Positions 4,197-61,162 are shown, counted from the first letter of the stretch. The stretch: DNA of 64,000 nt from Nitrospirota bacterium (GCA_963721805.1 CAVRJY010000001.1:928001-992000), one strand, 5' to 3'. Translations and numbers: made by a program. Notes: generated by a model not told the origin, from the letters alone.

Positions 4197-4239
4197 TTGA
4201 ATCGCATCTTTTCGGTGACCGTCTTTAGAAAGGCAGGAA

Positions 4240-5328: not shown

Positions 5329-5331
5329 CGG

Positions 5332-15100: not shown

Positions 15101-15255
15101 ATGGTCTTCATGTAGGTCTCGTCCACCGTCTCTTTGAACAGGTCATCGAACGACGAGAGGCTCTTTATGGCCAGCCCCCCCACGATCAGGACTAATGCCG
15201 CCATCACTCCGAACCCTATGCCGAGCTTCTTTCCTATCCTCATGTCCGTAAACAT
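12172..15255 (-). CDS. MCP with four-helix-bundle sensor, HAMP domains and two Cys-rich PAS modules
   Basis: Two TM helices, [30 protein letters not shown] signalling hairpin, a duplicated internal module and C-terminal GFSEF. Confidence 0.95.
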
Positions 15256-15298: not shown

Positions 15299-15820
15299 TC
15301 AGGCTGCCTGGGGCTGATCGGCCGGGCTGCCGGCCATCTCGGCCACCATGGCCGATTCTTCGTCGCTTAGCACCTTGTCTATATAAAGCACGAGCACGAG
15401 CCTGTCGCCCACCTTGCCCATACCCTTGAGGAAGTCCGTCCGCACCCTGGCGCCGAACGAGGGGGCCTGGGTTATCGAGCTTTCGGCCATGTGCAGGACG
15501 TCCGATACAGCATCGACGATGAGCCCCATCACGCCGCCCGGAAACTCGGTCACTATGACGCAGGTGTGCTTGTGCGCGTCGCCCGACTCCATGCCGAACT
15601 TCATCTTCAGGTCCACGACCGGGATGATCGTGCCCCGGAGGTTTATGACCCCCTTTAGGTATTCCGGCAGGTGCGGGACCTTCGTGACGTTCGAGAGCTC
15701 GATGATCTCCTGCACGTTCAGGGCGTCCATGGCGTACAGCTCATCGTTGAGCGTAAAGCTGACGTACTCCTGCCCTGCCTCTGACTGCTCCTCGCACATC
15801 CTCGACGCTAACGCCTCCAT
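15299..15820 (-). CDS. cheW: CheW
   Basis: [24 protein letters not shown] and [10 protein letters not shown] motifs. Confidence 0.95.
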
Positions 15821-15839
15821 GTATCCTCCTTTTCGCAGC

Positions 15840-17965: not shown

Positions 17966-17994
17966 TATTCCCCCGGTATCCCTGTGCCTGCCGT

Positions 17995-18357
17995 CTATTT
18001 CACGAACTTCTTGACGATGCCCACCAGCTGCTCGGGCTTGAAGGGCTTGACTATCCAGCCCGTCGCACCGGCCTGCGAGGCCTCTGACTTTTTGTTGTCC
18101 TTCGATTCGGTCGTGAGCATGAAAGTAGGCACGAACTTGTACCCGGGCAGCGCCCGCAGCGATTTTATGAACGTTATCCCGTCCATCTCGGGCATGTTGA
18201 GGTCCGTGATCACCATCTCGACCTTCGCCGTCTGGAGCTTGGCCAGGGCGTCCTTGCCGTGCACGGCGTCGATGACGCTGTAGCCCGCGTCCTTAAGCGC
18301 AAAGGACACGAGCTGTCTCATGGAGGCGGAATCGTCGACTATCATGATGCATGCCAT
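17995..18357 (-). CDS. cheY: CheY-like response regulator
   Basis: VDDS, TDLNMPEMDG and GWIVKPF motifs; directly upstream of cheA. Confidence 0.93.
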   Translation of the reverse strand: MACIMIVDDSASMRQLVSFALKDAGYSVIDAVHGKDALAKLQTAKVEMVITDLNMPEMDGITFIKSLRALPGYKFVPTFMLTTESKDNKKSEASQAGATGWIVKPFKPEQLVGIVKKFVK

Positions 18358-18381
18358 GCGAATCTCCTTTCCGGGCGGATC

Positions 18382-18654
18382 TCAGCCTGAAGCGGTATCT
18401 AGCCGGAGCCCAGCCCTGGCGGCCAGCTGCGAGAGCGCGCTGCCGCTGACGAGCGTGAAGGCGGCGTGGCGCGCCGTGCACTCCTTGCGTGCAGAGACGA
18501 TCAGCTGGAGCACGGATATGTCGATGTGCTCCACGCCCGAGGCGTCTACCGTGAGCCCGGCCCCGGCGTCGATGGCCTCGATGAAGGACTCCCTGAGCGG
18601 ACGGATGCCTTCGATAGTGCAGAGCCTGTCAAGCGTTACCTTGCCGGTTGCCAT
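18382..18654 (-). CDS. STAS domain protein
   Basis: VDASGVEHIDISVLQLIVS STAS_2-like pattern; typical position before cheY-cheA. Confidence 0.8.
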   Translation of the reverse strand: MATGKVTLDRLCTIEGIRPLRESFIEAIDAGAGLTVDASGVEHIDISVLQLIVSARKECTARHAAFTLVSGSALSQLAARAGLRLDTASG

Positions 18655-19714
18655 CCGTACCCTCCGCCTGCGCGTCTGCGCCCGCGCCTTCCATCAAGCT
18701 GGTGTCGTAGGATTCCTTCAGCGTCCTGCCGATGGCGCTGCTGCGGTCGTAGTGGTCGCTGTTGTAGAAATCGCACCGCAGGCAGTCCAGGAGCTTCTCG
18801 GCGTGGCTGCCGTGGATGCGCCCGGTGCACATCGTGCCGGTCACCCCGGCGCACTTCCTGCCGTGGGCCGCGTATGCCGGGCAGACGCCCAGCGAGGCGC
18901 GCGCTCCGCCCTCCTGCCTGCCGCAGTTCAGGAACTCCCAGCAGTTGAGCTTGTATGCGAGCTTGCCGTGGTCCTTCCACGCCTCGGCCGGCGCGGGGTA
19001 GCCGAGGTAATAGCCCTGCGCGTACTTGACGCCTATCTGCTTGAGCACCGAGAGTTCATCCGCGGTCTCGACCCCTTCGGCGATGAGGCTCGAATGCATC
19101 TTCTTCGCCATGAGGTTCATGCTCCCGACCAGGTCCTGCTTGCGCGCGTCCTTATGGAGGTCCTTTATGAAGACCCTGTCGACCTTCAGGTACGCAGGGT
19201 GCAGCATGAGGAGCTGGTAGAGGTACGGGGACCTGATGCCTATGTCGTCGAGCGCCATGTCGATGCCCGCCTTGCGCACGGTCTCGAGGTTGCGCAGTAT
19301 GTCCGTGGTCTGGCTCCTGTCGGTGTTCTCGGAAATCTCGAGCACTATGCGCCTGACGTCGATGCCGAGTTCCCGCAGAAGCCCGAGGTGTTCGTCCATG
19401 TTGCGGGCCATGAGTTCGAAGGTCCTGCTCGTTATGTTTATGAACAGCTTAACCCCGCCGGGCAGGTTGCGGCCGGTCCTGACCGAGGACTGGATGCCCG
19501 AGTGGTCCATGAGCATCAGGAGTTCGTCGCTCAGCGAGCCTGGAGCGTTAAACAGCGCCCCCGGGTTGCACATGCTCGTGTTCTCGGGGCCGCGCATGAG
19601 GGATTCGTACCCTATCGCGCGCTCCGACGAGATGTCGGCGATCGGCTGGAACACGGTCGAGAAAAACCCGCGGTTGATGATGGCGCGCACCTCGCGTTCT
19701 ACCGCCGTGTCCAT
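18629..19714 (-). CDS. EAL domain protein with C-terminal Cys-rich (two-CW-like) domain
   Basis: FQPI, YESLMR, LEISE, ALDD, LKVDR, AEGVE and AQGY motifs, then NCWEFLNC...CPAY...KC...MC...CLRCDFY. Confidence 0.85.
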   Translation of the reverse strand: MDTAVEREVRAIINRGFFSTVFQPIADISSERAIGYESLMRGPENTSMCNPGALFNAPGSLSDELLMLMDHSGIQSSVRTGRNLPGGVKLFINITSRTFELMARNMDEHLGLLRELGIDVRRIVLEISENTDRSQTTDILRNLETVRKAGIDMALDDIGIRSPYLYQLLMLHPAYLKVDRVFIKDLHKDARKQDLVGSMNLMAKKMHSSLIAEGVETADELSVLKQIGVKYAQGYYLGYPAPAEAWKDHGKLAYKLNCWEFLNCGRQEGGARASLGVCPAYAAHGRKCAGVTGTMCTGRIHGSHAEKLLDCLRCDFYNSDHYDRSSAIGRTLKESYDTSLMEGAGADAQAEGTDGNRQGNA

Positions 19715-20088
19715 CAGTGCACCCTGGTTTCCTGGATGGCGTTCATGATCGTCTTGAATGAGACCGGCTTCTCGAAATAGTAGTCCGCGCCTCTTAGGAA
19801 CGCGGCCTTCATGATCTCGGCGCTCCCAAACCCGGTTATCACTATCACCTTGGTCGCCTTGCTGGCCTGCTTAACGGCATCGAGGACCGCGAGCCCCTCG
19901 GCCGATAGCGTGCCGGTCAGCCTCACGTCGGCTATCACCGTCGAGTACGAATTCCCCTTTATGTTGGCGCACGCGTCGATGAGGGTCTCGGCGGTATCCA
20001 CTTTGTAACCCTCGGACTGGAGCATGTCCTGAAGGGCCAGGAGATATGCCTTCTCGTCGTCAACCAGCAAGACGCTTTCCTTCGCCAT
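19714..20088 (-). CDS. Single-domain response regulator
   Basis: LLVDDE, IADVRL, ITGFG and FEKP receiver motifs. Confidence 0.9.
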   Translation of the reverse strand: MAKESVLLVDDEKAYLLALQDMLQSEGYKVDTAETLIDACANIKGNSYSTVIADVRLTGTLSAEGLAVLDAVKQASKATKVIVITGFGSAEIMKAAFLRGADYYFEKPVSFKTIMNAIQETRVH

Positions 20089-27914: not shown

Positions 27915-30365
27915 ATGCATACATATCCCATAGACGAGGCGCTGCCGGAACTCATAAGAGAATTCGGCCACGCACGCGCGGCGGTGCTCCATGCCCCGCC
28001 CGGCGCCGGAAAGACCACGCGCGTACCGCTGGCGCTGATGGATATGCCTGGACGCATTGTAATGTTAGAGCCCCGGAGGCTCGCCGCGACGAACGCGGCG
28101 CGCTGGATGGCCGCGTCGCTCGGCGAGCAGGCCGGGGAGACCGTGGGCTATACGATCAGGTTCGAGCGACGCGTATCGGAACGCACGCGCATAGAGATAG
28201 TCACAGAGGGGATACTTACGAGGCGGATGCAGTCGGACCCCGCGCTCGAGGGCGTCTCGGTCGTGATATTCGACGAGTTCCACGAACGCGGCCTGAACAC
28301 CGACCTCGGCCTCGCGCTCTGCCTCGATATCCGGCGCAACCTGCGCCCTGAGCTCGGCATACTCGTGATGTCAGCAACGCTCGATTGCGGCCCGGTCGCG
28401 GAGCTCCTTGGAGGCGCGCCTGTGATCACCTCTGAAGGCCGGGCGTATGCGGTCGAGGAGCGCTATATCACGGAGCGGCCCGATCAGCGCGGGCGGCAGC
28501 TATCGGCGCGCGTGGCCGATGCGGTGAGGATAGCTATTAAGGAGACGACGGGCGATATCCTCGTGTTCCTGCCCGGCGCGGCCGATATACGCGCGGCCGC
28601 GCGCGAGCTAGGTAACATAAACGATATCGCGGTACATCAGTTATATGGCGAGATGCCGTTTGAGGCCCAGGAGCGTGCGATCATGCCCTCGGAGATGCGG
28701 CGCGTCGTGCTCGCAACCAACATCGCAGAGACGAGCCTGACGATCGAGGGCGTAAGAGTCGTTATTGATACGGGCCTCGAGCGCAGGATGCGTCACGACC
28801 CTTCAAGCGGGCTAAGCAGGCTCGTGACGGCCGGGATCTCGCGCGCATCGGCCGTGCAACGAGCAGGCCGCGCCGGGAGGCTCGGGCCGGGCGTATGCTA
28901 CAGGCTATACGGACGCAACGTGTTTGACGGGATGGTGCCCCACTCGCCGCCTGAGATCACGACCGCCGACCTCTCGGGGCTCTGCCTGGAGCTTGCGGCG
29001 TGGGGAGTGCATGACCCTTCAGGGCTTCGGTGGCTCGATGCGCCGCCAGAGGCCTCATGGAAGGCCGCGCGTGAGTTGCTGATCGACCTTGGCGCGATAG
29101 ACGCTGCCGGCGCGCCGACTAAGTACGGCAGGGCGATGGCGAGGCTCCCGCTGCACCCCCGGCTCGCGCGCATGCTCGTCAGGGCCGGTGAGCTCGGGAT
29201 TACACGTCTGGGGGCAGACCTCGCGGCGCTGCTAAGTGAGCGCGACATCCTGCGCGTTGAGGCGGATATATCGACGAGGCTCGACGCCCTGAGGCGGGGC
29301 GCGGGGGATGAGGCCGCTGTTCGGGCGGTTAAACGCGCCGCGGCCCAGATAGCGTCGATCGTCGGGGCAGAGGGCGGGACGCAGTTACCCCCGTATGACC
29401 ATGCTGACATTGCGAGGCTGCTACTCGATGCATTCCCGGACCGTCTCGGTGCGGGGCAGGGCGGGGGCCGTTTCGTGCTTACCGGAGGCATGGGCGTGAA
29501 GATGCCCGAGACAAGCCCTCTTGCGCGTGAGCCCTATATCGTAGCGGTCAACCTCGATGCCGGAGGCGCTGGCGACGGCAGGGTGCACATGGCCGAGGCC
29601 GTGGACGAGGCGCTCATACTCGATGAGCTATGGGCGCGGATAGAGCGTCCGAGGCGGCTGGAGTGGGACAGGCGCGAGGGCAGGATCGCCGCGTTTAAAG
29701 AGGAACGCATCGGCGCGGTCGTGCTCTCGTCGGTGCGCTTCACACCCGATGACGACGAGGCCGCACCGATACTGGACGAGGCCGTGCGGCTCGATCACGA
29801 TCTGATAAAATTCAGCGATTCCGCCCGGCAGCTGCAGGGCCGTGTTGCTATGCTCAGGCGGCTGTTTCCGGAGTCCGACTGGCCCGATCTCTCTGACAGC
29901 GCGCTGTTTGCCGAACCGCTTAAGTGGCTTGGGCAATGGGTTTCGGGCGTGCGCACCGCAGCCGGGCTTCGCGGCCTTAACATGCACGAGGTACTGCTAG
30001 GGCTGCTCGCGTGGGAGCAGCGCCGTGAGCTGGATAGGCTTGCGCCCACGCATATCGCGGTGCCGAGCGGCCGGAGCCACGCCCTCGATTACGCATCGGG
30101 CGATACCCCTGTTCTGAGCGTGAAGCTCCAGGAGATGTTCGGGCTCGCGGATACGCCTACAGTGGCCGCGGGGATCGTGAAGGTGCTGCTCTACCTGCTC
30201 TCTCCGGCCAACCGTCCGGTGCAGATAACGACCGACTTGAAGGGGTTTTGGGATACCAGCTACGAGATGGTGAAGAAGGACCTGCGGGGCCGCTACCCGA
30301 AGCACCCCTGGCCGGACGACCCGTGGGGCGCCGCGCCTACCGCGCGGACGAAGCGCAAGCCCTAG
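27915..30365 (+). CDS. hrpB: ATP-dependent helicase HrpB
   Basis: APPGAGKTT, DEFHER, MSAT, ATNIAETSLTI, QRAGRAGR and C-terminal RGRYPKHPWPDDP. Confidence 0.96.
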   Translation: MHTYPIDEALPELIREFGHARAAVLHAPPGAGKTTRVPLALMDMPGRIVMLEPRRLAATNAARWMAASLGEQAGETVGYTIRFERRVSERTRIEIVTEGILTRRMQSDPALEGVSVVIFDEFHERGLNTDLGLALCLDIRRNLRPELGILVMSATLDCGPVAELLGGAPVITSEGRAYAVEERYITERPDQRGRQLSARVADAVRIAIKETTGDILVFLPGAADIRAAARELGNINDIAVHQLYGEMPFEAQERAIMPSEMRRVVLATNIAETSLTIEGVRVVIDTGLERRMRHDPSSGLSRLVTAGISRASAVQRAGRAGRLGPGVCYRLYGRNVFDGMVPHSPPEITTADLSGLCLELAAWGVHDPSGLRWLDAPPEASWKAARELLIDLGAIDAAGAPTKYGRAMARLPLHPRLARMLVRAGELGITRLGADLAALLSERDILRVEADISTRLDALRRGAGDEAAVRAVKRAAAQIASIVGAEGGTQLPPYDHADIARLLLDAFPDRLGAGQGGGRFVLTGGMGVKMPETSPLAREPYIVAVNLDAGGAGDGRVHMAEAVDEALILDELWARIERPRRLEWDRREGRIAAFKEERIGAVVLSSVRFTPDDDEAAPILDEAVRLDHDLIKFSDSARQLQGRVAMLRRLFPESDWPDLSDSALFAEPLKWLGQWVSGVRTAAGLRGLNMHEVLLGLLAWEQRRELDRLAPTHIAVPSGRSHALDYASGDTPVLSVKLQEMFGLADTPTVAAGIVKVLLYLLSPANRPVQITTDLKGFWDTSYEMVKKDLRGRYPKHPWPDDPWGAAPTARTKRKP

Positions 30366-31133: not shown

Positions 31134-31877
31134 TTATTTCTTGACCTCTTTCTTAACTCCGTAACGCTTGCGCACCTCCGCGACCTTGCCGCACGAGTAT
31201 TCGCCCTCTGGGCATGGGTGATATAGGCATCCCGGCCCTGCGTGCTCGAAGATCACCGGAGCGGCCTTCTTTGCGAGGGCGAGCATGCGCTCGGCCATCG
31301 CGCGGATCTCCCACTGGGCGCGGTTGCAGCAGCGCTGGTGGAAGAAGTGCAGGAGTTCGCGCGCGTTCATCGTGACGATGATCTTGGTCTCGGCCGCGTT
31401 AGGGAGCGCGAAACGCGCGTCCTGATTGGCGGCCTCGCCCTTTATCCCGGCCTCGTTAAGCCCGGTCACGAGTGCGTTATACGCCTCTTGCGCCGAGGCC
31501 ATATTAGCGTGGAAGAGCTTTAGGAGCTTCTTGTCGGCCTTTATAGTAGGGGGCACGATATAGTCGAAGCCCTCGGACTCGTTGACGTAGCGCTGCGACT
31601 GCTGGGAGTATGACGCGAGGCGGTGGCGCACGAGCTGGTGCGAGCAAGCGCGAGAGATGCCCTCTATAGCGAAGGTGAACGAGGCGTGCTCTATCGGGCT
31701 TTGGTGGCCCATGCGCATCAGGCGGCGGACGAACTCGTGCTGGTCCTTGGCCGCGATCTTGCCGTTGAGTGTCTCGATATCGGTGGGGCTGTAGCAGAGC
31801 TTCGCGGCCATTGCCACGGTGCCCTCGGGCTCTGGCGTGTGGCGAAGCAATAAGACTTTTAACTTTGCCTCTTTCAT
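31134..31877 (-). CDS. thyX: FAD-dependent thymidylate synthase
   Basis: [26 protein letters not shown] and AQWEIR motifs. Confidence 0.96.
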
Positions 31878-32674
31878 TTGAAGCTCTCTCCTTCGGAAGG
31901 AAAATTCCCGTCTTCGACATCTTTTATGTATGCGCGCACCGCGTCGAGCGCGGGCTGCTTGAGATTGGCGTATTTGCGGACGAACTTCGGCGTGAAGCGG
32001 TCGAAGAGCCCGAGGATGTCGTGCATCACTAGCACCTGCCCGTCGCAGTGCGGCCCCGCGCCGATGCCTATCGTCGGGATCGTGAGCGCCTTCGTTATCT
32101 CGGCCGCGAGGTCCATCGGGATCGCCTCTAGCACGAGCGCGAACGCCCCGGCGTCCTCTACGGCGCGGGCCTCGTCCATGAGCTTGCGACGGGCCTCGTC
32201 TGATTTGCCCTGCACCTTGTAGCCGCCCATGCGGTGCACGGCCTGGGGCGTGAGCCCGATATGGGCCATCACGGGGATCTCGGCGCGGAGCATCGCGCGG
32301 ATATGCTCGGTGAGTTCGGAGCCGCCTTCGAGTTTGACCGCCTGCGCCCCGCCTTCTTTGATAAAACGCCCGGCGTTGCGAACGGCGTCTTCGACCGATA
32401 TTTGATATGACATGTAGGGCATGTCGCCTATGACCATCGAGTTCTGCGCGGCGCGGCTGACGATGCGCGTGTGGTATATCATCTCGTCCATCGTCACGGG
32501 CAGGGTGTTCTCCAGCCCCTGAACGACCATCGCGAGCGAGTCGCCGACCAGAATAGCATCCACCCCGGCCTCGTCCATTATGCGAGCGAACGGGAAGTCG
32601 TAGGCAGTCAACATAGCAATACGCTTACCCTGTGACTTTTTCGCTATCAGGTCGTTAATCGTAACTCTTGGCAT
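31874..32674 (-). CDS. panB: 3-methyl-2-oxobutanoate hydroxymethyltransferase
   Basis: MLTAYD, LVGDSL, VKLEGG, HIGLTPQ and IGIGAG..CDGQVLV motifs. Confidence 0.97.
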
Positions 32675-32712
32675 GGTGAAATAATTTTAGCATTTTTGGG
32701 GCAGGTGGGTGG

Positions 32713-32837
32713 AAAGCCGCGCTAAATTGCCTGATACGTTGTCGCGCCATCGCCCTCACGCCCTCAGAGTACGCCCAAGTACACTTGCGGGCGGAGGGCT
32801 CGCCGCTCCTAGTCTGAGCCTAATTTATCGCGCTTTG
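32713..32837 (+). repeat. ~125-bp hairpin repeat element, left copy
   Basis: Imperfect terminal inverted repeat CGCGCTAAA...TTTATCGCG; homologous to the reverse complement of 36681-36803. Confidence 0.8.
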
Positions 32838-32923
32838 ATGTTGCTATGTTCCTAATCGCGCGAGCGGTCAACGGCATTGATTGGAGCGGCCAAGCCGCTG
32901 GACCCTCGCGCCCCCGTGGATTA

Positions 32924-34411
32924 TTAACACCGATCGATCAATTCCTCTATGAATGGAATGAACGATTCAGGTACTAGATCAGAGATTTTTGTGTTATAGA
33001 TATTCATACTTACAATATGTATTATTTCTTTGGGCAACTCTTTTAATTCAAAAGGGAACGGCTCTGGACGAAAATCTCTTCTTCGACCAATAGGATTATG
33101 ACTTGCTTCCAGTTTTATCCACTTGCCATAAATCTCATCCTCGCCTGAAACAAGAATTAGGTTGAATCCCCTTCCGCTCCCAGTTTTTAAGTACCCCCAT
33201 GCTATTATGGTCATATTATTAACTACATAATTCCTGCTAACCCGTTCTATCATAACTTCAATTTGTTCCTTAGGACGGGTAGACATTCTACCAGGATGAC
33301 TACATAGGATAGCAAATGAAAACTCGCCTCTTTTTCTGAGTTCTAATTTCATAGAATCTGATGAATCATTGAAAGCTTGTACAATTGTTCCAACCTTCGT
33401 TGCCAATTCAGTAAAGGCAAACATAATAGCACCTATTTTTTCCCTTATCCTCATCTGCTCAGCTTCTTGCTTCAATCGAAACTCTTCCTCTCTTTGCGTT
33501 TTAGTAATCGTTTTTTTAACTAAGGCGCTAATGTCATAGCCTTTTTCAGCCGGCTGTTCTGTAGACATTATTCGTGAAATTATTTCATCCCATGAGGAAT
33601 ACCTCTCTTCTGGTCTCTTGGCGATCATTTTCATAATTAACTGCGTCAGATTTAAATCAAGTGATGTATTAATTGTGTTTGGAAGTGTTGGTAATTGTGT
33701 AAGATGAGCATTTCTCCATGCCTCAATAATATCGCCAACTGCTTTAACTTCAAGTGGGTGTCGCAATGTCGCAAGTTCATAAAAAACTATACCCATTGAG
33801 TAAATATCCATGCTTATGGTATTTTTCTCAGAGCGCAAAGCCTCTGGAGCAGAGTATTTAATATGTTGAATGCCTTTGAATGTTGAAGACCGAGTTGCTG
33901 CATTTACTGCTTTTGAAAGACCAAAATCAGAAATCTTTAGCATTGATTCCTTCAATAATATATTGTCAGGCTTGATGTCTCTATGGATGACTTTATCATT
34001 TATTGCTTTCATTCCAGATGACAATTGTAAAAATAAATCACGAAGCTCTTTATTGCTTAACAAATGATTCGCATCCTTTTGACGCTTAATAATATCTAAC
34101 AATGTTCCGTCCGAAGCATACTCCATAATCAGATAGGGAGGAAGATGGCTATACGTATTGCCATCATGAAAGAAATATGCTTTTATTACATTCTCATGGT
34201 CGATTGTTACGGAAAGTTTAGCTTCATTAATTAAAGCCGCCAACTGGTCATTATTCAATGAGGCTGTAATGATTGTCTTCAGAGCATACTCGTCACCATT
34301 TGCTGTTGCTATCTTAAAGACTTGTCCAAAACTGCCATTATCCAAAAAACTAATCACACGTAGCTCTTCACCGTTTGAGCCATAAACTATACCATCTGGT
34401 CTTATATCCAT
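32924..34411 (-). CDS. Hanks-type Ser/Thr protein kinase with unknown C-terminal domain (AT-rich, foreign)
   Basis: GSFGQVF, ALK, HRDIKPDN, DFG, APE and DIYSMG motifs; visibly AT-rich compared with the flanks. Confidence 0.93.
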   Translation of the reverse strand: MDIRPDGIVYGSNGEELRVISFLDNGSFGQVFKIATANGDEYALKTIITASLNNDQLAALINEAKLSVTIDHENVIKAYFFHDGNTYSHLPPYLIMEYASDGTLLDIIKRQKDANHLLSNKELRDLFLQLSSGMKAINDKVIHRDIKPDNILLKESMLKISDFGLSKAVNAATRSSTFKGIQHIKYSAPEALRSEKNTISMDIYSMGIVFYELATLRHPLEVKAVGDIIEAWRNAHLTQLPTLPNTINTSLDLNLTQLIMKMIAKRPEERYSSWDEIISRIMSTEQPAEKGYDISALVKKTITKTQREEEFRLKQEAEQMRIREKIGAIMFAFTELATKVGTIVQAFNDSSDSMKLELRKRGEFSFAILCSHPGRMSTRPKEQIEVMIERVSRNYVVNNMTIIAWGYLKTGSGRGFNLILVSGEDEIYGKWIKLEASHNPIGRRRDFRPEPFPFELKELPKEIIHIVSMNIYNTKISDLVPESFIPFIEELIDRC

Positions 34412-34455
34412 AACACACTCCTAATAATTGGATGAATTTATGTTACTACAAAATC

Positions 34456-34484
34456 AAGATAATATTGACAGTTGCGATTGTCGA
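34456..34484 (-). promoter_or_regulatory. Candidate sigma70 promoter of the kinase gene
   Basis: Minus strand TCGACA-N17-TATCTT, overlapped by an imperfect palindrome; GGAG RBS before the ATG at 34411. Confidence 0.3.
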
Positions 34485-34527
34485 TAGAAATTTGTTCATG
34501 AATATGCTCCCCCCATACCACACCTCT

Positions 34528-35111
34528 CCGGAACTGGCCAATAGGAACCAGTTCCCAGGAATCGCCTCATGCGTCGTCACAGCACAAAGCGATTCTCAGC
34601 GTATCTGCGATAAGCTTGCGGTCGTTCTGTGCTATGCCTCGTATGATGCGATTTGATCATATATCACTATCTGTGAGCTTACTAACTATGGTTAGTTTAT
34701 AAACCGCATAACACAAAAGCCCGGAACTGGTTCCTAGGAACCAGTTCCCAAGAATCGCCTCATGCGTCGTCACAGCACAAACGATCCTCAGCGTATCTGC
34801 GATAAGCTTGCGGTCGTTTTGTGCTGTTCCTTGTATGATGCGATTTGATCATATATCACTATCTGTGAGCTTACTAACTATGGTTAGTTTATAAACCGCA
34901 TAACACAAAACCCCGGAACTGGCCAATAGGAACTGGTGCCCAGGAATCGCCTCATACGTCGTCACAGCACAAAGCGATCCTCAGCGTATCTGCGATAAGC
35001 TTGCGGTCGTTTTGTGCTCTGCCTAGTATGATGCGATTTGATCATATATCACTATCTGTGAGCTTACTAACTATGGTTAGTTTATAAACCGCATACCACA
35101 AAAGCCCGGAA
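34528..35111. repeat. Tandem array of three ~193-bp non-coding structured units
   Basis: Units start with CCGGAA at 34528, 34721 and 34913, and a fourth starts at 35106 (periods 193/192/193); the units are near-identical. Confidence 0.95.
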
Positions 35112-36311
35112 TGTAAAGGTTACGCTCTTACCGGACAGTATCAGGCTGGAAAAAGCAGGCGGCAGCCAGCCCTTCCATCGGTTAGAATGTTTCACCACAA
35201 AACACAGACCGAAGGAGGAAGGGCATGACTGCCAAAGAAAAGATATCACAAGGGAGGCTTTCAATGCTTCAGCTGGCCGAGAGGCTCAGGAACGTGTCGG
35301 AGGCCTGTCGCCGCCGGGGGGTGAGCCGCAGCCAGTTTTACGAGTACAAGCGGGCGTTTCAGGAGCAGGGGTTTGCGGGGCTCGCGGACCTTCCGCCGAT
35401 AGCGCGTAGCTGTCCCCACAAGACGCCTGAGGAGGCCCGCAAGCGAGTGATCGAGATGAGCCTTGCTCACCCCCGGTGGGGGAAGCAGCGCATCTTCGAG
35501 CACCTGCTTCTGGAGGGCATATTGGTGCGTCCCTCAACTGTGTATCGCATCCAGGTTCGCGAGGGGCTGGAGTCGAAGGCCAAGCGCATCCTCCGGCTTG
35601 AGCAGGAGGCTAACGGCAAGGAGATCGAGCTAACGGAGGAGCAGGTCAAGCTCATCGAGCGGGCCAATCCGTGCTTCAGGGAAAGGCATGTGGAGAGCGC
35701 ATATCCGGGCTATCTGCTCAGCCAGGACACCTTCACGGTGGGCAAGCTCAAGGGCATCGGGACCGTGTATCTGCAGGCCGTGGTGGACACGTACGGCTCT
35801 TATGCCTTCGGCAAGCTGTACACGTCGAAGAGGCCCGAGACGGCGGCCGACGTGCTCTACGACCGCGTGCTGCCGTTTTACGAGGACCATGGCATCAGGG
35901 TCCAGCATGTCCTGACGGACAACGGCTCGGAGTACTGCGGCAAGCTGCTGCGGCATCCGTACGAGCTGTTTCTGGCGCTTCACGACATCGCGCATCGAAG
36001 GACGAAGGTGGCGACACCGAGGACAAACGGATTCGTGGAGCGGTTTAATCGCACCATCCTGGACGAGTTCTTCTCGGAGACGTTCAGGTACCGGTTCTAC
36101 GCATCGCTCGATGAGCTGCAGTATGACCTCGACCGGTGGCTGCACCACTACAACAACGAGCGCCCTCACAAGGGCTATCGCAACATGGGCAGACGGCCAA
36201 TAGAAACTATCGAGCTGGGCAAAAAGCTAAGACAGAAAGCTGAGGAGGAGGCCGCCTGATCAGTGCGACCGATGAGATGGAAAACTGTCCGGAGAGCACT
36301 GGACTTTTACA
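35112..36311 (+). mobile_element. IS481-family insertion sequence, 1200 bp
   Basis: TGT...ACA ends, imperfect 28-bp TIR (TGTAAA...CCGGACAGT) and 8-bp direct repeat GCCCGGAA at 35104-35111 and 36312-36319. Confidence 0.92.
35225..36259 (+). CDS. IS481-family DDE transposase
   Basis: NVSEACRRRGVSRSQFY HTH, LTDNGSEY, PRTNGFVERFNRT and YNNERPH motifs. Confidence 0.95.
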   Translation: MTAKEKISQGRLSMLQLAERLRNVSEACRRRGVSRSQFYEYKRAFQEQGFAGLADLPPIARSCPHKTPEEARKRVIEMSLAHPRWGKQRIFEHLLLEGILVRPSTVYRIQVREGLESKAKRILRLEQEANGKEIELTEEQVKLIERANPCFRERHVESAYPGYLLSQDTFTVGKLKGIGTVYLQAVVDTYGSYAFGKLYTSKRPETAADVLYDRVLPFYEDHGIRVQHVLTDNGSEYCGKLLRHPYELFLALHDIAHRRTKVATPRTNGFVERFNRTILDEFFSETFRYRFYASLDELQYDLDRWLHHYNNERPHKGYRNMGRRPIETIELGKKLRQKAEEEAA

Positions 36312-36315
36312 GCCC

Positions 36316-36385
36316 GGAACTGGTCAATGGGAACTGGTTCCCAGGAACCAGTTCCCAGGAATCGGTTCCCATGGACTGGTTCCGC
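36316..36385. repeat. Five tandem 14-bp degenerate palindromic repeats (GGAACYRGTTCCCA-like)
   Basis: Units at 36316, 36330, 36344, 36358 and 36372; the same 14-mer occurs twice at the start of each 193-bp unit. Confidence 0.85.
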
Positions 36386-36680
36386 CTTTTGGTTCTATCA
36401 TCGCGCATGATGAATATAACGACAACAATAGTAAGACCAACAGATGTTAGAAAAACGACTTGTGTGGGCAGGGGATATGGCGGTGGGTCAAACGAAAAAC
36501 GTTTCTGAACGCCTAAACACTGAGGTGCGGAGAAAGCGCTTATTTTCCGCTGGGTTGGACTGTTTTTTCTCTGTTCATTTGAACGCTCTAAAAAAATACG
36601 CGCGGCCGCGCGCGGTATGTGTAACTATAGTAAGCCGTTGACCGCGAGGCGCGGAGGCAGCGGCTGTGCCGCGCACTTCG

Positions 36681-36803
36681 CAAAGCGCGATAAATCGCGT
36701 CAGACTAGGAACGGCGAGAAGGCCGACCGCAGGTGTACTGTGACGTACTCCGAGGGAGCGGCTTCGAGCCGTGACAACGTATCACGCGACTTTAGCGCGC
36801 TTT
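36681..36803 (-). repeat. ~125-bp hairpin repeat element, right (inverted) copy
   Basis: Reverse complement shares GCGCTAAA, TGATACGTTGTC, GAGTACG, AGTACAC, CTCGCCG, CCTAGTCTGA and ATTTATCGCGCTTTG with 32713-32837. Confidence 0.8.
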
Positions 36804-37378
36804 CACTTCTTGCACTTCGGAAACTCCCCGCTGCCAAAGCCGGGGTATGCTTTCCACTCGCTCGGTGCGGTCGGGTTCGTGACTTTGGGCCATACCTCCG
36901 GACGCGGGTCGGGTCCCTCATCCCCGGTAGGCGCGCAGTCGCCGAGCCGCGGATTGCGGGATACGTCGACGCCGGGTATGGGTGTGGTGAACTCCACGGC
37001 CACGCCGTGTGGGTCGAAGCAGTAGATCGAGTGGATGAAGCCGTGGTCTATGACCATAGATACCCAAATACCGGCGGCCTCGATGCGGTCGCGGATCTCG
37101 TAGAGCGCGGCCTCGTCCTCGACACCGATCGCGATGTGGTCAAAGGCGAACGGCCCGGTAGTCGGGACGCCGTGCTCCTTTTCCTTGATCGGCTCGATGC
37201 CGGGCCACTCGAAGAAGGCGAGCATGCAGCGGTCCGCGACCTCGACGAAGTAGACCTTGCCGCCGGTATCGCCGAACGAGACGCGCACGGGCATGCCGAG
37301 CAGGTCGCGCCAGAAGCGGAGCGTCTCGCCGAGGTTGCCGGTGGCGATAGCGACGTGGTGTGTGCCGGTGTACCTCAT
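36803..37378 (-). CDS. VOC/glyoxalase family protein
   Basis: HHVAI, FDHIAI and DHGFIHSIYCFDPHGVAVEF motifs. Confidence 0.88.
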   Translation of the reverse strand: MRYTGTHHVAIATGNLGETLRFWRDLLGMPVRVSFGDTGGKVYFVEVADRCMLAFFEWPGIEPIKEKEHGVPTTGPFAFDHIAIGVEDEAALYEIRDRIEAAGIWVSMVIDHGFIHSIYCFDPHGVAVEFTTPIPGVDVSRNPRLGDCAPTGDEGPDPRPEVWPKVTNPTAPSEWKAYPGFGSGEFPKCKK

Positions 37379-41809: not shown

Positions 41810-42894
41810 GCCTCGCCAGGGCGCTGCTGGTCGCCCTCGGCTTCGCGCTGCTCTTTCTGCCGTTTAAGGGAATAAGCGGCGCGCTGTGGATGTTCGGGGT
41901 GCTTGCGGTCTCGATCCCGGCGTTTAAGGGGCTGGGCCGGCTTGCATCGAGGCGGACGTTCCGGCTGCCGCTGGTCCCGAAGGTCAATCCCATGGTTTTA
42001 TACGCGGCCACCCTCGCGTCGTTGCTTTGCGTGCCGCTGGTGGCGGGCGGGTACGTGATCGACGTGCTCGTGCTCGCGTGCATATACGTGATTCTGGCCG
42101 AGGGGCTTAACGTTGTGGTCGGCTTTAGCGGGATGCTGAGTCTCGGTTTTGTGGCGTTTTATGCGATAGGGGCATACGCTTATGCGCTCCTTACGACGGA
42201 TGCGGGGATCGGCTTTTGGGTCGCGATGCCTGTAAGCGCGGTGGTCGCGGCCTTGGCCGGTGGGCTTCTGGCGCTTCCGGCCCTCAGGCTGCGGGGGGAT
42301 TACCTCGCACTCGTGACGCTCGGTTTCGGCGAGATCGTGCGGCTGGTGCTCAACAACTGGGACTCGGTCACCCACGGCCCCAACGGCATATCCGGCATCC
42401 CGCGCCCGGCGCTTGCCGGCTTCGGCCTCGACAGGCTCGAGCACTACTACTACCTTGCGCTCATGATGGTCGTCGTCTCGCTTGCGGTAATCAGAAACGT
42501 CCGCGAATCGAAGATCGGGCGGGCCTGGGTCGCGATCCGCGAGGACGAGATAGCGGCCTCGGCCTCGGGCATAAACACCCTGCTCTATAAATTCTACGCC
42601 AACGCATTCGGCGCGTTCTTCGCCGGGCTGGCCGGGGTGCTCTATGCCGCGAAGATGCAATTTATCTCGCCCGAGAGCTTTTCCTTTTTTGAGTCCGTGA
42701 TCGTGCTTTGCATGGTCATCCTCGGAGGGCTCGGGAGCATCACGGGCGTCGTGCTGGGGGCGACCCTGCTGGTCGTGCTGCCGGAGATGCTCCGGGACGT
42801 GCAGGCATACCGCATGCTGGTGCTCGGGGCCGGGCTCGTCGCGCTGATGATATTCAGGCCGCAGGGGATTATGGGGCGAAGGCATGCTTCTTGA
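41806..42894 (+). CDS. livM: Branched-chain amino acid ABC transporter permease
   Basis: LRLRGDYLALVTLGFGEIVR and GRAWVAIREDE motifs. Confidence 0.93.
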   Translation: MSLARALLVALGFALLFLPFKGISGALWMFGVLAVSIPAFKGLGRLASRRTFRLPLVPKVNPMVLYAATLASLLCVPLVAGGYVIDVLVLACIYVILAEGLNVVVGFSGMLSLGFVAFYAIGAYAYALLTTDAGIGFWVAMPVSAVVAALAGGLLALPALRLRGDYLALVTLGFGEIVRLVLNNWDSVTHGPNGISGIPRPALAGFGLDRLEHYYYLALMMVVVSLAVIRNVRESKIGRAWVAIREDEIAASASGINTLLYKFYANAFGAFFAGLAGVLYAAKMQFISPESFSFFESVIVLCMVILGGLGSITGVVLGATLLVVLPEMLRDVQAYRMLVLGAGLVALMIFRPQGIMGRRHAS

Positions 42895-43642
42895 GCTCAG
42901 GGGCGTAGTCAAGCACTTCGGCGGGCTGCACGCCATCGAGGACGTCTCGTTCAGGGTGCGCGGGGGCGAGATAGTGAGCGTCATAGGCCCAAACGGCGCG
43001 GGCAAGACCACGCTGTTTAACTGCATAACCGGGTTTACGCGCCCGACCGGCGGCGCGGTGCTCTTCGGCGGCGCGGACATCACCGGGCTTAAGCCCCACA
43101 GGGTCAGCGCCGCGGGGATAGCGCGCACCTTTCAGAACATCAGGCTCTTTAAGGAGATGAGCGCCGTGGAAAACGTGATGGTCGCCGCGCACGGCTCGAT
43201 CGAGACCGGGTTTCTCTCGGCCGTGTTTCGCACGGGAGGGTTCGCTAGGAAGGAGCGCTCTGCGCGCGAGGGCGCGATGGAGCTCCTCTCCCTGGTCGGC
43301 ATCGGGAGGTACGCGGACAATGAGGCGGGCTCGCTCCCATACGGAGACCAGCGCAGGCTCGAGATCGCCCGCGCGCTGGCCTCGGAGCCTCGTCTGATCC
43401 TGCTTGACGAGCCCGCGGCCGGGATGAACCCGCAGGAGACCGGCGAGGCCATCGAGCTCATACGCAAGCTCAAGCTCATGGGCAAGACCGTCGTGCTGAT
43501 CGAGCACGACATGAACGTCGTGATGGGCATCTCCGACAGCATCGTGGTGCTGGACCACGGGGTGAAGATCGCCGAGGGCGCGCCGGATGCGATCAGGCGC
43601 GACCCGCTCGTGATCGAGGCCTACCTCGGCAGGGAGATATAG
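42884..43642 (+). CDS. livG: Branched-chain amino acid ABC transporter ATPase
   Basis: GPNGAGKTT, IARTFQNIRLF, LLDEPAAG and VIEAYLG motifs. Confidence 0.94.
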   Translation: MLLELRGVVKHFGGLHAIEDVSFRVRGGEIVSVIGPNGAGKTTLFNCITGFTRPTGGAVLFGGADITGLKPHRVSAAGIARTFQNIRLFKEMSAVENVMVAAHGSIETGFLSAVFRTGGFARKERSAREGAMELLSLVGIGRYADNEAGSLPYGDQRRLEIARALASEPRLILLDEPAAGMNPQETGEAIELIRKLKLMGKTVVLIEHDMNVVMGISDSIVVLDHGVKIAEGAPDAIRRDPLVIEAYLGREI

Positions 43643-44359: not shown

Positions 44360-45370
44360 TTACTGCTGCTCCCGCTCGGGCCGCAGGGCGCGCCAGAGCC
44401 TGATCGCCACGAGAATGATGGCGGTAATGAGCCCCGTGAAGATCGTGATTATGCCGAGCTGCAGCAGGGGGAGCCCGGGGTCGCGTGCCGCTTCGAGCTG
44501 CACCCAGTACGAGGGCTCCTGGAACGAGAGCGTGTAGCCGTCAAACGATATCGGCCCGGCGCCGGAGTTGCCGTCGAAAACCGTGGTGTCGCCCTTGACT
44601 ATCTTCAGGCCGTAGAGCGGATGTTTCATGTGATAGGTCTTGATCTTCTCGTCCCCGCGTTCCTTGACCTCGTTTGGCAGGACGCGGAGCGAAAACACGT
44701 AAGGCAGGCCCTGGAGCTTGAAGTCGTCCGTGGCCCCGGGGGGCAGGAGCCTGAGCGACACGAGCCCGTCCTGCAGCGTCTCGCCGGCCGCATTGCGCAG
44801 CAGGAGCGAGGGCGCCATGTCCACGAACAGTATGTGATAGTAGGTCGTGCCGATGCGCGTCGGAGGGAACGCCTCTATGGTTTTGGTCGAGCCGTCGTCC
44901 TTTTGCGCGGTGATCTTTGGCGCGTACTGGAATATCCCGCTCCCGGTGTCCGTGGCGTGCTCTCCGAGGCCTGCGTCGAGGCGCTCGACCGTAAAGCCTG
45001 CATCGTGCCAGGGCGGCGAGACCGCAGTGCCTTCAGCCACCGCCAGCTTGTCGCTATGGCGCAGAGAGGCGCTCAGCAGGAATCCAATAAGAAATATGAT
45101 AACGCCCGCGGGGAGCACCACCCAGAGGGCGAACCTGAGCCTGCTTTCCCTGAAGCGCGCGATGCCCTGGCGCGCCGTAACGCCGATCACGCACAGGACG
45201 AACAGGATATATATCGCCTGGACCGCCTTGAACTCGCTCAACAGGCCGATATAGCTGGCAAAGGCCTCCGTGCCCCATACTGCCCACGTGACATAGAAAA
45301 TCGCCCAGCCGATCACGAGAGCGCCGAGCGTCCGGCCGGACGTGAATATCGACAGGAGTCTCCTCATCAT
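44360..45370 (-). CDS. Membrane protein with ResB-like topology
   Basis: Three N-terminal TM helices, a large beta-rich periplasmic domain, RDPG motif and a C-terminal TM helix. Confidence 0.5.
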   Translation of the reverse strand: MMRRLLSIFTSGRTLGALVIGWAIFYVTWAVWGTEAFASYIGLLSEFKAVQAIYILFVLCVIGVTARQGIARFRESRLRFALWVVLPAGVIIFLIGFLLSASLRHSDKLAVAEGTAVSPPWHDAGFTVERLDAGLGEHATDTGSGIFQYAPKITAQKDDGSTKTIEAFPPTRIGTTYYHILFVDMAPSLLLRNAAGETLQDGLVSLRLLPPGATDDFKLQGLPYVFSLRVLPNEVKERGDEKIKTYHMKHPLYGLKIVKGDTTVFDGNSGAGPISFDGYTLSFQEPSYWVQLEAARDPGLPLLQLGIITIFTGLITAIILVAIRLWRALRPEREQQ

Positions 45371-46740
45371 CGCTCACCGCCCTTCGGGCCGCCTGAGCGG
45401 GCATCGGCCCAGCGCGCGTCGATCTCCGAGGTCTGGATGCGGATGTCGCGGTCGTTTATCTCAGCCTTGAGCGGGATGGGGTTGCAGCCGCCGGGCCTGC
45501 CCAGCGTGGAGGTGGATATCGGGGTCCTGCAGAACATGCAGACCACGAAACCCGTGCTCTGGCCGTATCCCTCGGGCGGGCATATCTCGCAGGCATCCAG
45601 GCATACAGCGAGCTTGTCGTCGGGTTTTTTCATCACGAAAAATCTAACTTCGCCCTCCGGCCGCATGATGACGAACTTGTGGATCTTCCCGTCGCGGAGG
45701 TCCATCGTGGGGTCGGTGAGCGGTATCACGACCGAGCCCTTATCTTCGACCACGGGCTTCGGTGCGGGGGCGTACAGGATCGAGACCTCTCCCCGGCTGC
45801 TCGCCGATATCCACGAGGCCAGCACCACGGCGACGAATACCATGGCGGCGGCGGACAATTTTAAGCGCGTCCGGCGCGCCTCGGCCCGCAGTATCCTCCT
45901 GTGCGCCCCGGTCGCGGCCTCGTCCACGCCGGGCACAGGCGCAACGTATACCGAATACAGGTATACCGCAGCGGGGCCCGCAAGCAGCGCAAGCGCGACC
46001 GAGAGCCCGAAGTTCGAGCCGAAGAATATGCCGATGAACTTCCAGGTCGTGAGCGTGAGCATCGGGTGGTCCGGCACGAGCAGGAAGACCAGCACCTGGT
46101 GCAGGACGTCGTGCGTGAATTTCATCGCGCCGCGCTCGACCGTCGGGATCAGGGAAAACTCGCTGAGCCCGCTGATGCCCCCTGCCGTGAGCTTGATGAG
46201 CGCCATCATCAGCATGAGCTGCCCGGTGCCTAAAAACCTTGAAAGCGGCCCGGCGAGCCTCATCGGACGAAGCGCGAGCAGGAGCCACGGGAGCGCGAAT
46301 CCGGCCGCGAACGCCGCGTACGTTGAGGCAGGGCTCGCCCTCATCACGCCGGTGTCCCTGAGGTAGACGGCCGCGCTGAGGATGTCGGGCACGAGGTACA
46401 GGGCTATCAGAGCGGCGATGCCCGGCCCGGCGATCCTCTCAAGGGCTGCCGGCATCGTTACTGCTGCAGCGAAGAGACCGATTATCGAGGTCGCGAAAAA
46501 AAGGAAGAAGACGTACCCGACGAGCTGGACGAGCCATGGCCGCAGGGACTGCGCCCCGACGCCAGCCATCACCGCCGCCGAGACCGCCGCAGCGGCAACG
46601 GCGCCGGCCAGCAGCCACCTGAGCAGTTCGCCGCGCCGGGGGCTGTCATTCAGGTACGCCGCCCACAGCAGCCACAGCAGCAGGAGCTTGAAGGCCTCCT
46701 TAAGGCCCAGCGGGCCTATATCAGTAATAATTTGGCTCAT
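45367..46740 (-). CDS. DUF2318 (Fe-S-containing) membrane protein
   Basis: Multi-TM N-terminus; C-terminal DACEIC...VCMFC...GGCNPIPL motif. Confidence 0.85.
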   Translation of the reverse strand: MSQIITDIGPLGLKEAFKLLLLWLLWAAYLNDSPRRGELLRWLLAGAVAAAAVSAAVMAGVGAQSLRPWLVQLVGYVFFLFFATSIIGLFAAAVTMPAALERIAGPGIAALIALYLVPDILSAAVYLRDTGVMRASPASTYAAFAAGFALPWLLLALRPMRLAGPLSRFLGTGQLMLMMALIKLTAGGISGLSEFSLIPTVERGAMKFTHDVLHQVLVFLLVPDHPMLTLTTWKFIGIFFGSNFGLSVALALLAGPAAVYLYSVYVAPVPGVDEAATGAHRRILRAEARRTRLKLSAAAMVFVAVVLASWISASSRGEVSILYAPAPKPVVEDKGSVVIPLTDPTMDLRDGKIHKFVIMRPEGEVRFFVMKKPDDKLAVCLDACEICPPEGYGQSTGFVVCMFCRTPISTSTLGRPGGCNPIPLKAEINDRDIRIQTSEIDARWADARSGGPKGGER

Positions 46741-47398
46741 CTTTTAGAACTTTGCCGTCCTGCATCGTGATCGTGCGCTCAGCCCATTTTGCCACATACG
46801 GGTCGTGGGTTACCAGCACTATGGTGAAGCGCTCGTCTTTGTGCAGGGTCTTTAAGAGCTCCATTATCATAGTCGTGTTCTGCCGGTCGAGGTTCCCGGT
46901 AGGCTCGTCGGCCAGGAGGATGCGGGGGTTGTTCGTCAGTGCGCGCGCGATGCATACCCGCTGCTGCTCTCCGCCGCTGAGCTGCGAGGGCCGGTGTTCG
47001 AGCCTGTGGCCCATCCCGACGCGCTTGAGGGCTTCTATCGCCTCGCCCTCGTCCGTGAGGCTGTGGAAATACTGTGCGAGCATCACGTTTTCGACGCAAG
47101 TCAGGTACGGCACCAAGTGAGACTGCTGAAACACGATCCCGATGTTCTCGCGCCTGAAGCGCGCCATCGCGTCCTCTCCAAGCGGGCAGGTCTCGGTGCT
47201 GTCGATCGTGACGCACCCCCCGGTGGGGCTGTCGAGACCGCCCAGGATGTTCAGCAGCGTGCTCTTGCCCGAGCCCGAGCTTCCCACTATCGCGCACCAC
47301 ATGCCCCGCTCTATGTCTATGTCCACGCCCCGCAGGGCCGCGGCGGTCGAGTATTCTTTCATCAGTCCGCGTATCTCGATAAAGGCCACTTCACTCAC
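46721..47398 (-). CDS. ABC transporter ATP-binding protein (LolD/MacB-like)
   Basis: GSSGSGKST, LSGGEQQRV, LADEPTGNLD and VTHD motifs. Confidence 0.93.
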   Translation of the reverse strand: MSEVAFIEIRGLMKEYSTAAALRGVDIDIERGMWCAIVGSSGSGKSTLLNILGGLDSPTGGCVTIDSTETCPLGEDAMARFRRENIGIVFQQSHLVPYLTCVENVMLAQYFHSLTDEGEAIEALKRVGMGHRLEHRPSQLSGGEQQRVCIARALTNNPRILLADEPTGNLDRQNTTMIMELLKTLHKDERFTIVLVTHDPYVAKWAERTITMQDGKVLKDEPNYY

Positions 47399-61089: not shown

Positions 61090-61162
61090 TACGCCAGGCA
61101 GGAATCGAACCTGCGGCCAGCTGCTTAGAAGGCAGCTGCTCTATCCGCTGAGCTACTGGCGC
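61090..61162 (-). tRNA. tRNA-Arg (TCT)
   Basis: Cloverleaf GCGCCAGTAGCTCAG...CTTCTAA...GGTTCGATTCC; CCA not encoded. Confidence 0.95.

Follow-up and report, generated by a model that had tools for sequence, protein, structure and literature searches.

Introduction

Several hairpin-forming or palindromic elements described in bacteria, among them the REPIN/REP-RAYT system, integron attC sites, ERIC-type repeats and mobile insertion cassettes, share features with an element that we analysed in a 64,000-nucleotide stretch of DNA from a Nitrospirota bacterium (GCA_963721805.1 CAVRJY010000001.1:928001-992000), hereafter called the window. Five imperfect hairpins lie there within 4.1 kb, between panB and a gene of the VOC/glyoxalase family, and enclose a low-GC insert with a gene for a protein kinase. 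Judged from their alignment and predicted folds, the five copies are one family of imperfect hairpins, each of about 100–125 bases, which is apparently previously undescribed; our literature searches, within the portions of the publications that were accessible, found no description of it.

Like the elements of the REPIN/REP-RAYT system, the family is an intergenic hairpin repeat of about 100–120 nt that keeps its pairing and occurs as single, inverted and tandem copies and right after stop codons, and in both cases a trans-acting enzyme is presumed to recognise the folded strand. However, the window contains no RAYT gene and no short REP core was recognised. Moreover, the copies are not dispersed (the five share one locus, and the other 60 kb of the window have none), and they fall into two compositional classes, one of which lies inside foreign DNA. 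The attC sites of integrons and of clusters of attC sites lacking integrases (CALIN) resemble the family in that structure is kept over sequence, in their comparable size, and in the presence of co-oriented copies flanking a defence-type gene; integron cassettes are reported to carry defence genes. In contrast to attC sites, the copies analysed here have no canonical R''/R' cores, their conservation is in internal loops, one copy is inverted, and there is no integrase in the window.

ERIC/IRU-type repeats and elements of the type of miniature inverted-repeat transposable elements (MITEs; about 100–170 bp) are similar in length, are imperfect palindromes, and share the intergenic, co-transcribed position beside a stop codon. 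The arms of MITEs keep their sequence because both bind one transposase, whereas the stems of the present family covary; in addition, no target duplication was seen, and dispersed copies are absent from the 64 kb. Mobile insertion cassettes are similar in that inverted ends bracket a passenger gene without a transposase of their own, but the ends found here measure about 165 bp and have an internal structure, there is no known matching insertion sequence (IS), and again no target duplication was seen. For the cargo gene only, the closest system is the single-gene kinase defence PD-T4-6: the gene gives a PADLOC PD-T4-6/mad6 match and stands alone. Unlike an established member, it reaches no curated NCBIfam cut-off and has a conserved C-terminal domain that is unmatched in the PDB and the Atlas, and its anti-phage role is putative.

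The reading that we favour, with a probability of about 0.35, is that the hairpins are cis sites of a non-autonomous mobile or variable cassette, which are read as folded strands by a protein encoded elsewhere. Such sites would follow the logic of REPIN/RAYT, of IS200-type ends or of attC, while belonging to none of these.

Five Copies of One Hairpin Family

A preliminary description of this DNA, made from the sequence, had proposed five homologous hairpins with a common skeleton, and all five were found where it had placed them. The left outer hairpin, L, is at 32713–32837 on the plus strand; the three array hairpins A1 (34556–34663), A2 (34749–34855) and A3 (34941–35048) are also on the plus strand, and the right outer hairpin, R, is at 36681–36803 on the minus strand. 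L and A1–A3, between which the kinase gene lies, have the same orientation, and R is inverted. L and R are identical at 96 of 122 aligned bases (21% diverged). The array hairpins are mutually 94–95% alike, and they are 54–58% identical to L and 62–66% identical to R. The five-copy alignment has 52 invariant columns, which include the motifs claimed for the skeleton; conserved blocks are ATRCGTYGTC, CTCRGNGTA, CYTGCGG, CCTNGTMTGA and ATTT(G)ATC. ATRCGTYGTC and CCTNGTMTGA are opposed across an internal loop, and CTCRGNGTA and CYTGCGG surround the apical stem.

Eight sequences were folded, five in the family orientation and three from the opposite strand, and each formed a single long, imperfect hairpin, its z-score relative to dinucleotide shuffles lying between −3.2 and −5.3 (for L, −47.7 kcal/mol and z −3.24; for A1, −40.2 kcal/mol and z −4.0). 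By composition there are two classes: the outer copies have a GC content of 0.59, which is host-like (L, 0.59; R, 0.585), and the inner ones of 0.47–0.49 (A1, 0.49; A2, 0.47; A3, 0.48), the latter beside a kinase gene at 0.37.

A covariance model built from the five copies, which had been proposed as a check, was run over all 64 kb with the filters disabled. It gave the five copies 64–120 bits (L, 64.3; A1, 113.8; A2, 118.6; A3, 120.2; R, 89.9), their opposite strands 14–38 bits and the best unrelated match 14.2 bits, so that there is no sixth copy in the remaining 60 kb of the window. Models built from one subtype also detected members of the other. The model made from the array copies only finds R (25.9 bits, E 9e-5) and misses L; the model made from L and R only, which gives L 146 bits, finds A2 (34.4 bits, E 2.7e-6) and A3 (23.5 bits, E 1.3e-3), and A1 weakly (12.7 bits, E 0.66), all three in the predicted orientation. 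Three associated sequences, the 12-mer GCGGTCAACGGC, the 11-mer GATACGTTGTC and the palindrome GGAAC-YR-GTTCC, are confined to this locus except for chance-level near matches.

A strict three-block motif scan over 185,579 species, with one genome each, returned four loci, which is near the few expected by chance. Only one of the four obtained a score with the model, and the other three form no hairpin. The scoring match (L002, 9979–10053, minus strand, on the Terriglobia metagenome-assembled genome (MAG) contig CBDCKF010000002.1) reached 26.7 bits, and only its apical stem folds: a perfect stem of 7–8 bp stands between CTC and TGCGG, without enclosing stems, just upstream of a gene start. This match is likely due to chance but may be a distant relative.

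Covariation of the Stems

The alignment of the five sequences contains 35 consensus pairs, for which 89.6% of the cells pair, as compared to 30–41% when the partner is slid by 1–3 columns. Both sides have changed in nine of the 35 pairs, a number that was matched by none of 500 shuffles. Between L and R alone, six pairs have changed on both sides, and the same number is reached by 5 of 500 shuffles. Only three of the lineages behind these counts are independent, namely L, R and the array type, and the tool used warns that related sequences may beat shuffles without any structure; the covariation is good for so few copies, yet it is not proof.

The stems named in the preliminary description are all present at the places given there. 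In L, GCCCTC (32752–32757) pairs with GAGGGC (32794–32799), in R, GAAGCCG pairs with CGGCCTTC, and in units 2 and 3 of the array CACAAA pairs with TTTGTG; for unit 1 the description has to be corrected, because this unit has TCTGTG and not TTTGTG. Stems that change while pairing is kept, together with constant asymmetric loops, are more readily explained by a folded single strand than by an ordinary inverted repeat in double-stranded form. The idea that structure is kept over sequence in a REPIN- or attC-like manner can therefore be retained as far as one family, kept pairing and conserved loops are concerned, but attC cores are absent and no recombinase was found in the window.

An Inverted-Repeat Bracket around a Low-GC Insert

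The window is chromosomal DNA of 61% GC, and its GC content falls to 0.33–0.41 in the interval between the VOC/glyoxalase gene and panB. The left host flank is formed by panB (ketopantoate hydroxymethyltransferase; 31874–32674, minus strand; Pfam Pantoate_transf, E 1e-121; start codon checked), whose ATG is separated from L by 38 nt. The VOC/glyoxalase-family gene (36803–37378, minus strand; Pfam Glyoxalase, E 1.5e-13) forms the right host flank, and R begins at its TGA stop codon (36803–36805).

When the right flank is reverse-complemented and aligned with the left one, four successive parts appear, namely the hairpin, a spacer, a CGGTCAACGGC block and a small GC hairpin. The spacer between the hairpin and the CGGTCAACGGC block is variable (about 26 and about 35 nt), and the CGGTCAACGGC block is exactly conserved. 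The inverted-repeat arms detected at L and R have lengths of 57, 23 and 15 nt (at 81%, 83% and 100%, respectively), and the whole bracket is an inverted repeat of about 165–200 bp that extends from the VOC stop codon to 38 nt before the panB start. The 12-mer GCGGTCAACGGC is present as an exact match on the inner side of L (32864–32875, plus strand) and of R (36634–36645, minus strand). This pair had been described earlier as a further inverted pair; it is indeed exact and, being the best-kept block of the L/R homology that runs inward from the hairpins, it is not a separate coincidence. The inner edge of the left arm is a small GC-rich hairpin, AGCGGC-CAA-GCCGCT (32881–32899), read from the sequence and without a T-run after it. 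It aligns with the terminator region of the right arm, where a terminator scan identified a GC hairpin with a T-run resembling an intrinsic terminator (36599–36614, minus strand) downstream of VOC and R.

The composition jumps just inside both small GC hairpins, which delimits a low-GC insert of about 3.7 kb (~32918–36598). That two copies, L on the plus and R on the minus strand, bracket an island of low-GC DNA was thus correctly described, whereas the picture of the island itself required revision: the insert proper is confined to the interval just given, it holds an IS481-family insertion, and the array of hairpins is a triplication of one unit. The right end of the insert is a unique AT-richer segment (36393–36598; GC about 0.43, measured over 36384–36598) without a family match, and a Pfam scan of the open reading frames (ORFs) 36263–36508 and 36444–36641 gave no match.

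A bracket of this kind might be formed by the ends of a mobile insertion cassette, L and R being long double-stranded terminal inverted repeats served by a DDE transposase in trans, the kinase a passenger, and the inner copies the nested ends of a related element. This would account for inverted ends round a passenger gene that has no transposase of its own and for outer boundaries that fall on a clean operon junction, made up of the VOC stop, 38 nt and the panB start; read outward, the 12-mer also contains TTGACC, which may be −35-like, as in the outward promoters of IS ends. We nevertheless consider a mobile insertion cassette improbable, as we see no target-site duplication, the ends of the sole IS of the window are unrelated, and the stems of L and R differ yet each pairs, with the six both-side changes mentioned above, which is unexpected for ends bound as a duplex.

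The same bracket could be an ordinary species-specific intergenic palindromic repeat, or a relic of one, into which an unrelated insertion was brought by illegitimate recombination. L and R would then be an old inverted duplication in an intergenic place rich in repeats, and their stem complementarity would be kept by template-switch correction of quasipalindromes and not by selection. ERIC- and REP-type repeats are typically found just after a stop codon and are imperfect palindromes of about 125 nt, which the position and form of the outer hairpins resemble. In addition, there is no mobility enzyme nearby, long palindromes are fragile at their centre, and L and R, because they are 21% diverged, would be far older than the unameliorated insert. 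What an ordinary repeat leaves unexplained is that the same family is present in the foreign DNA (reciprocal E-values of 9e-5 and 2.7e-6) and nowhere in the other 60 kb. Mismatches and bulges should moreover disappear under template switching, but subtypes with 54–66% identity have retained the same asymmetric loops. We therefore regard a palindromic repeat as unlikely; if this is what the hairpins are, they would be a matter of routine annotation.

The Hairpin Array and the IS481 Insertion

The inner hairpins are part of a tandem array of about three copies of a 193-bp unit (34511–35111, plus strand), which Tandem Repeats Finder (TRF) reports as direct repeats at 34528–35111 with a period of 193, 3.0 copies and 93% matches. 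Each unit is composed of GGAAC-YR-GTTCC palindromes in a 14-nt phase, the hairpin and an AT-rich spacer. Palindromes of 12 bp precede each of the array hairpins (34544–34555, 34723–34748 and 34929–34940), and about five of them are in a run at the array end (36330–36369). This run is part of a 14-nt repeat, GGAAC-YR-GTTCC-CA, which ends the array (36316–36392, plus strand; TRF period 14, 3.9 copies), and no hairpin follows it. GGAAC-YR-GTTCC has seven matches in the window, against 0.46 expected, and all of them are at this locus; the palindromes look like possible binding sites for a dimeric protein. On the minus strand the GGAAC pair at 34748–34723 gives a terminator-like hairpin followed by GGGCTTTTGT, and on the plus strand a terminator-like site formed by a GGAAC pair (36358–36383) closes the array.

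At the start of a fourth array unit lies an IS481-family insertion (35112–36311, plus strand), flanked on both sides by GCCCGGAA (35104–35111 and 36312–36319). Its assignment to the family is based on a transposase above the cut-off (35225–36259; NCBIfam transpos_IS481, 269.8 bits against a cut-off of 224), terminal inverted repeats and the flanking duplication. The copy is complete and has a host-like GC content of 0.59, and its terminal inverted repeats are imperfect, its own, and unrelated to the hairpins. The fourth unit, which is split by the insertion, aligns with the others in the GGAAC repeats only and then diverges. In the simplest history, one inner hairpin flanked by GGAAC clusters was amplified by unequal crossing-over before IS481 arrived. 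Under the folded-strand reading these would be late events: the inner unit was triplicated through unequal crossing-over between GGAAC repeats, and the fourth unit received IS481.

A blastn search with the island against plasmids matched 149 records, and all 25 of the matches listed cover the IS481 part only; the relatives among them are transposase genes with 66–68% identity from Burkholderia, Bradyrhizobium and other plasmids. The same search with the whole island against phages gave no match.

The array units contain small ORFs, namely ORFs of 28 amino acids (aa) with a TTG start on the plus strand (34616–34702, 34808–34894 and 35001–35087) and of 38 aa with a GTG start on the minus strand (34657–34773 and 34849–34965), besides others of 27–30 aa on the minus strand. 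Their recurrence is probably an effect of the 94–95% identity of the units. A type I toxin was rejected: counterparts of the small array ORFs are missing from L and R, a full hydrophobic helix is encoded by none of these ORFs, and the identity of the units explains their conservation. A homologue search with a 74-aa ORF overlying the array was empty.

The Kinase Cargo

The gene between L and the array (32924–34411, minus strand; GC 0.37) encodes a Ser/Thr protein kinase of 495 aa (Pfam Pkinase, E 3.8e-45), which matches the PADLOC models mad6 (E 2.1e-54) and PD-T4-6 (E 8.4e-46); in NCBIfam its score for MAD6 is 110.6 bits, below the curated cut-off of 460. By these matches it resembles, and may be, a phage-defence-type kinase of the PD-T4-6/mad6 kind. 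The AlphaFold2 model (pLDDT 86.6) shows a kinase domain, a helix of 55 residues and a beta-rich C-terminal domain. Among 8000 candidates scored, 1838 relatives were found at E <= 0.001, which come from many phyla and of which the best is 49% identical; most of the 120 relatives listed cover 93–100% of the protein. The C-terminal region (residues ~290–495) is conserved over many phyla, with G406, G415, N417, Y428, G429 and W431 invariant. This domain belongs to no Pfam family, the PDB fold matches cover the kinase domain only, and the Atlas gave no usable match. A family that is patchy over many phyla, with a best identity of 49%, is as expected of a transferred defence gene.

Among plasmids, 871 records match the kinase, and two of them, from Bacillus cereus and Providencia rettgeri, cover at least 80% of the protein; of the 74 matching phage records none covers 80%. 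The surroundings of both full-length plasmid homologues are free of tandem repeats and of the hairpin, for which the best score was 13 bits. The hairpin thus does not regularly accompany this kinase, and belongs to the carrier or the site instead. An RNA partner of the kinase, as in type III toxin–antitoxin systems, where short RNA repeats in tandem stand directly before the gene of a ToxN/AbiQ-type endoribonuclease, was likewise rejected: the protein is a Hanks-type kinase, the repeated unit is 193 bp long, and both plasmid homologues lack a tandem repeat.

Folding Strand and Transcription

When folded as RNA, the array copies are more stable in the family orientation (−42.1 to −44.0 kcal/mol) than in the opposite one (−38.4 to −41.3 kcal/mol), and they have 3–5 G-U pairs in the former and 0–2 in the latter. 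In contrast, for L and R the opposite orientation is the more stable one (−54.3 versus −47.7 and −51.6 kcal/mol), and with DNA parameters the opposite orientation is better in all four copies tested. The choice of a strand by folding energy was consequently abandoned, since it is contradictory between subtypes and between RNA and DNA parameters. Transcription of R in the family orientation, as the 3' untranslated region (3' UTR) of the VOC gene, is very probable, because R sits between the VOC stop codon and the terminator-like site on the same strand. A scan for promoters and terminators found no promoter-like site before L or before the array units.

These results bear on a structured RNA, either a 3'-UTR element or a family of small RNA genes, which we consider doubtful in itself and nearly as likely as the reading that we favour. 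R would be co-transcribed with VOC; its paralogues, L and the array copies, would serve to stabilise, process or regulate neighbouring transcripts or to bind a protein, with local duplication as the source of the clustering. The place of R between the VOC stop and the terminator-like site agrees well with such a role. So do the covariation and conserved loops, which are a classic signature of structured RNA, the G-U pairs and better RNA folds of the array copies in the family orientation, and the plus-strand terminator-like site at the array end. However, the opposite strand gives the better fold for L and R, L runs antisense to the sole neighbouring direction of transcription, and promoter-like sites are missing both before L and within the array units. 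There is no Rfam match either: at the gathering score, Rfam yielded only two tRNA matches in the window and none in the hairpin region, and at E <= 10 the four matches in 32500–37000 all had E >= 1.2, far below threshold. Duplication in place would furthermore leave AT-rich inner stems in a 61% GC genome unexplained, and the plasmid homologues of the kinase are without such an RNA. A structured RNA thus explains the covariation and the position of R equally well, but the clustering and the AT-rich inner copies less well. If it is one, the motif would be new, and its covariation unusually clear given the small number of copies.

Several more specific identities were considered and rejected. The pan motif, retron msr, group II intron domains, ribozymes, 6S and Y RNA gave no Rfam match. 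R starts at the UGA of VOC, as a selenocysteine insertion sequence (SECIS)-like element might, and another in-frame UGA follows after six codons. For a single-strand promoter (Frpo-like) or origin, there is no −35/−10 pair at 16–18 nt in either arm, and conjugation or replication genes are absent.

Candidate Enzymes and attC Sites

The preliminary description had suggested looking for a linked HUH/RAYT or tyrosine recombinase gene. The scan of 57 ORFs in the window identified no tyrosine or serine recombinase, no HUH/RAYT protein and no reverse transcriptase, and the sole transposase is the DDE enzyme of IS481, whose ends are unrelated; within the window this expectation was not borne out. No family was assigned to 17 of the 57 ORFs (14/45 and 3/12), among which there may be an unknown enzyme.

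The base of an attC hairpin carries the core consensus RYYYAAC ... GTTRRRY. A regular-expression scan for this pair, at a spacing of 50–160 and on both strands, found none in 32600–36900 and four in the whole window. When compared with the shape of attC sites (hairpins of 57–141 nt with extrahelical bases), the family fits in length, bulges and covariation, and its conserved elements are in internal loops and not in R/L boxes. It is highly improbable that the locus is a degenerate integron cassette array (CALIN) with the hairpins as attC sites. Imperfect hairpins of attC-like length with variable stems, the co-orientation of four of the five copies and a defence-type gene between two of them would all suit such an array, but the core pair is absent, conservation is not at the hairpin base, the window has no IntI gene, and one copy is inverted.

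A Proposed Folded-Strand cis Site

Under the reading that we favour, the site would be an imperfect palindrome of 100–125 nt whose stems are free to change as long as they pair. The contact surface for the protein would be the asymmetric internal loops that are kept, namely the one formed by ATRCGTYGTC and CCTNGTMTGA and the one of CTC and TGCGG round the apical stem. The low-GC DNA lies exactly between the two arms and would have brought its own, AT-richer version of the site; the common site would link the foreign DNA to this spot, either as the end of an element or as a target for recombination or insertion. A reading of the locus has to account jointly for a kept structure with kept asymmetric loops, for the clustering of all copies in 4.1 kb, for the two compositional classes in host-like and in foreign DNA, and for the inverted bracket. 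We take the hairpin as this link because a chance insertion, between two resident copies, of DNA carrying the same rare element is unlikely. Also in favour are the common orientation of L and A1–A3 around the kinase gene, the patchy spread of the kinase family and the lack of the hairpin beside the two full-length plasmid homologues. We infer in this way that the hairpins fold in vivo, that an enzyme acts on them in trans and that they had a role in the entry of the insert; the capture of cargo, raised in the preliminary description, is what the arrangement of the locus suggests.

Several observations weigh against a folded-strand site. No recombinase, HUH or RAYT gene is among the 57 window ORFs, and reading of the sequence gave no target-site duplication at the outer ends. 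R is the one copy of the five that is inverted, at odds with single-strand systems in which a single orientation is maintained, and the folding energies do not single out one functional strand. L and R are alike over their whole length and are not outer/inner hybrids, and therefore they do not record a simple site-by-site integration. Finally, no second locus supports mobility, the four matches of the 185,579-species scan being chance-like.

A more specific version, which we regard as distinctly unlikely, is a cassette system that is integron-like but unrelated to integrons, in which an enzyme whose gene lies elsewhere in the lineage inserts, excises and stacks foreign cassettes between two fixed inverted sites. 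Such sites would be defined by asymmetric internal loops and not by attC cores, and the present cassette would be the defence kinase from a low-GC donor. If the hairpins are folded-strand recombination or insertion sites in the general sense, they would represent a new way for defence genes to slot into chromosomes, in a poorly sampled lineage, and would provide a searchable signature for further cassettes.

Other Features of the Window

The window contains genes for chemotaxis, sigma-54, PAS-GGDEF-EAL proteins, PNPase and other housekeeping functions. The closest PanB proteins are 87% and 83% identical to that of the window, and the named relatives, at about 73%, are from Nitrospirae/Thermodesulfovibrionia MAGs. 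The two tRNA genes, which are the only Rfam matches in the window, are adjacent (61090–61162 and 61173–61246, minus strand). A gene for a methyl-accepting chemotaxis protein of 1027 aa (12172–15255), in which Pfam detects repeated PAS domains, includes a direct repeat of 300 nt at 84% identity (13147–13446 and 13819–14118). Long ORFs without a Pfam family at E <= 1e-5 are present in the regions 4225–6927, 15414–19780, 41998–43542 and 44621–46747 (for example of 529, 501, 486 and 581 aa), some of which may be wrong-strand calls due to the greedy choice of ORFs. Finally, a GC-rich palindromic stretch of 19 bases with a NotI-like core, located at 36596–36625 in the terminator beside R, recurs at 28587–28616 in the gene for the HrpB helicase; the match extends over 30 nt at 83% and, given the composition, is probably due to chance.

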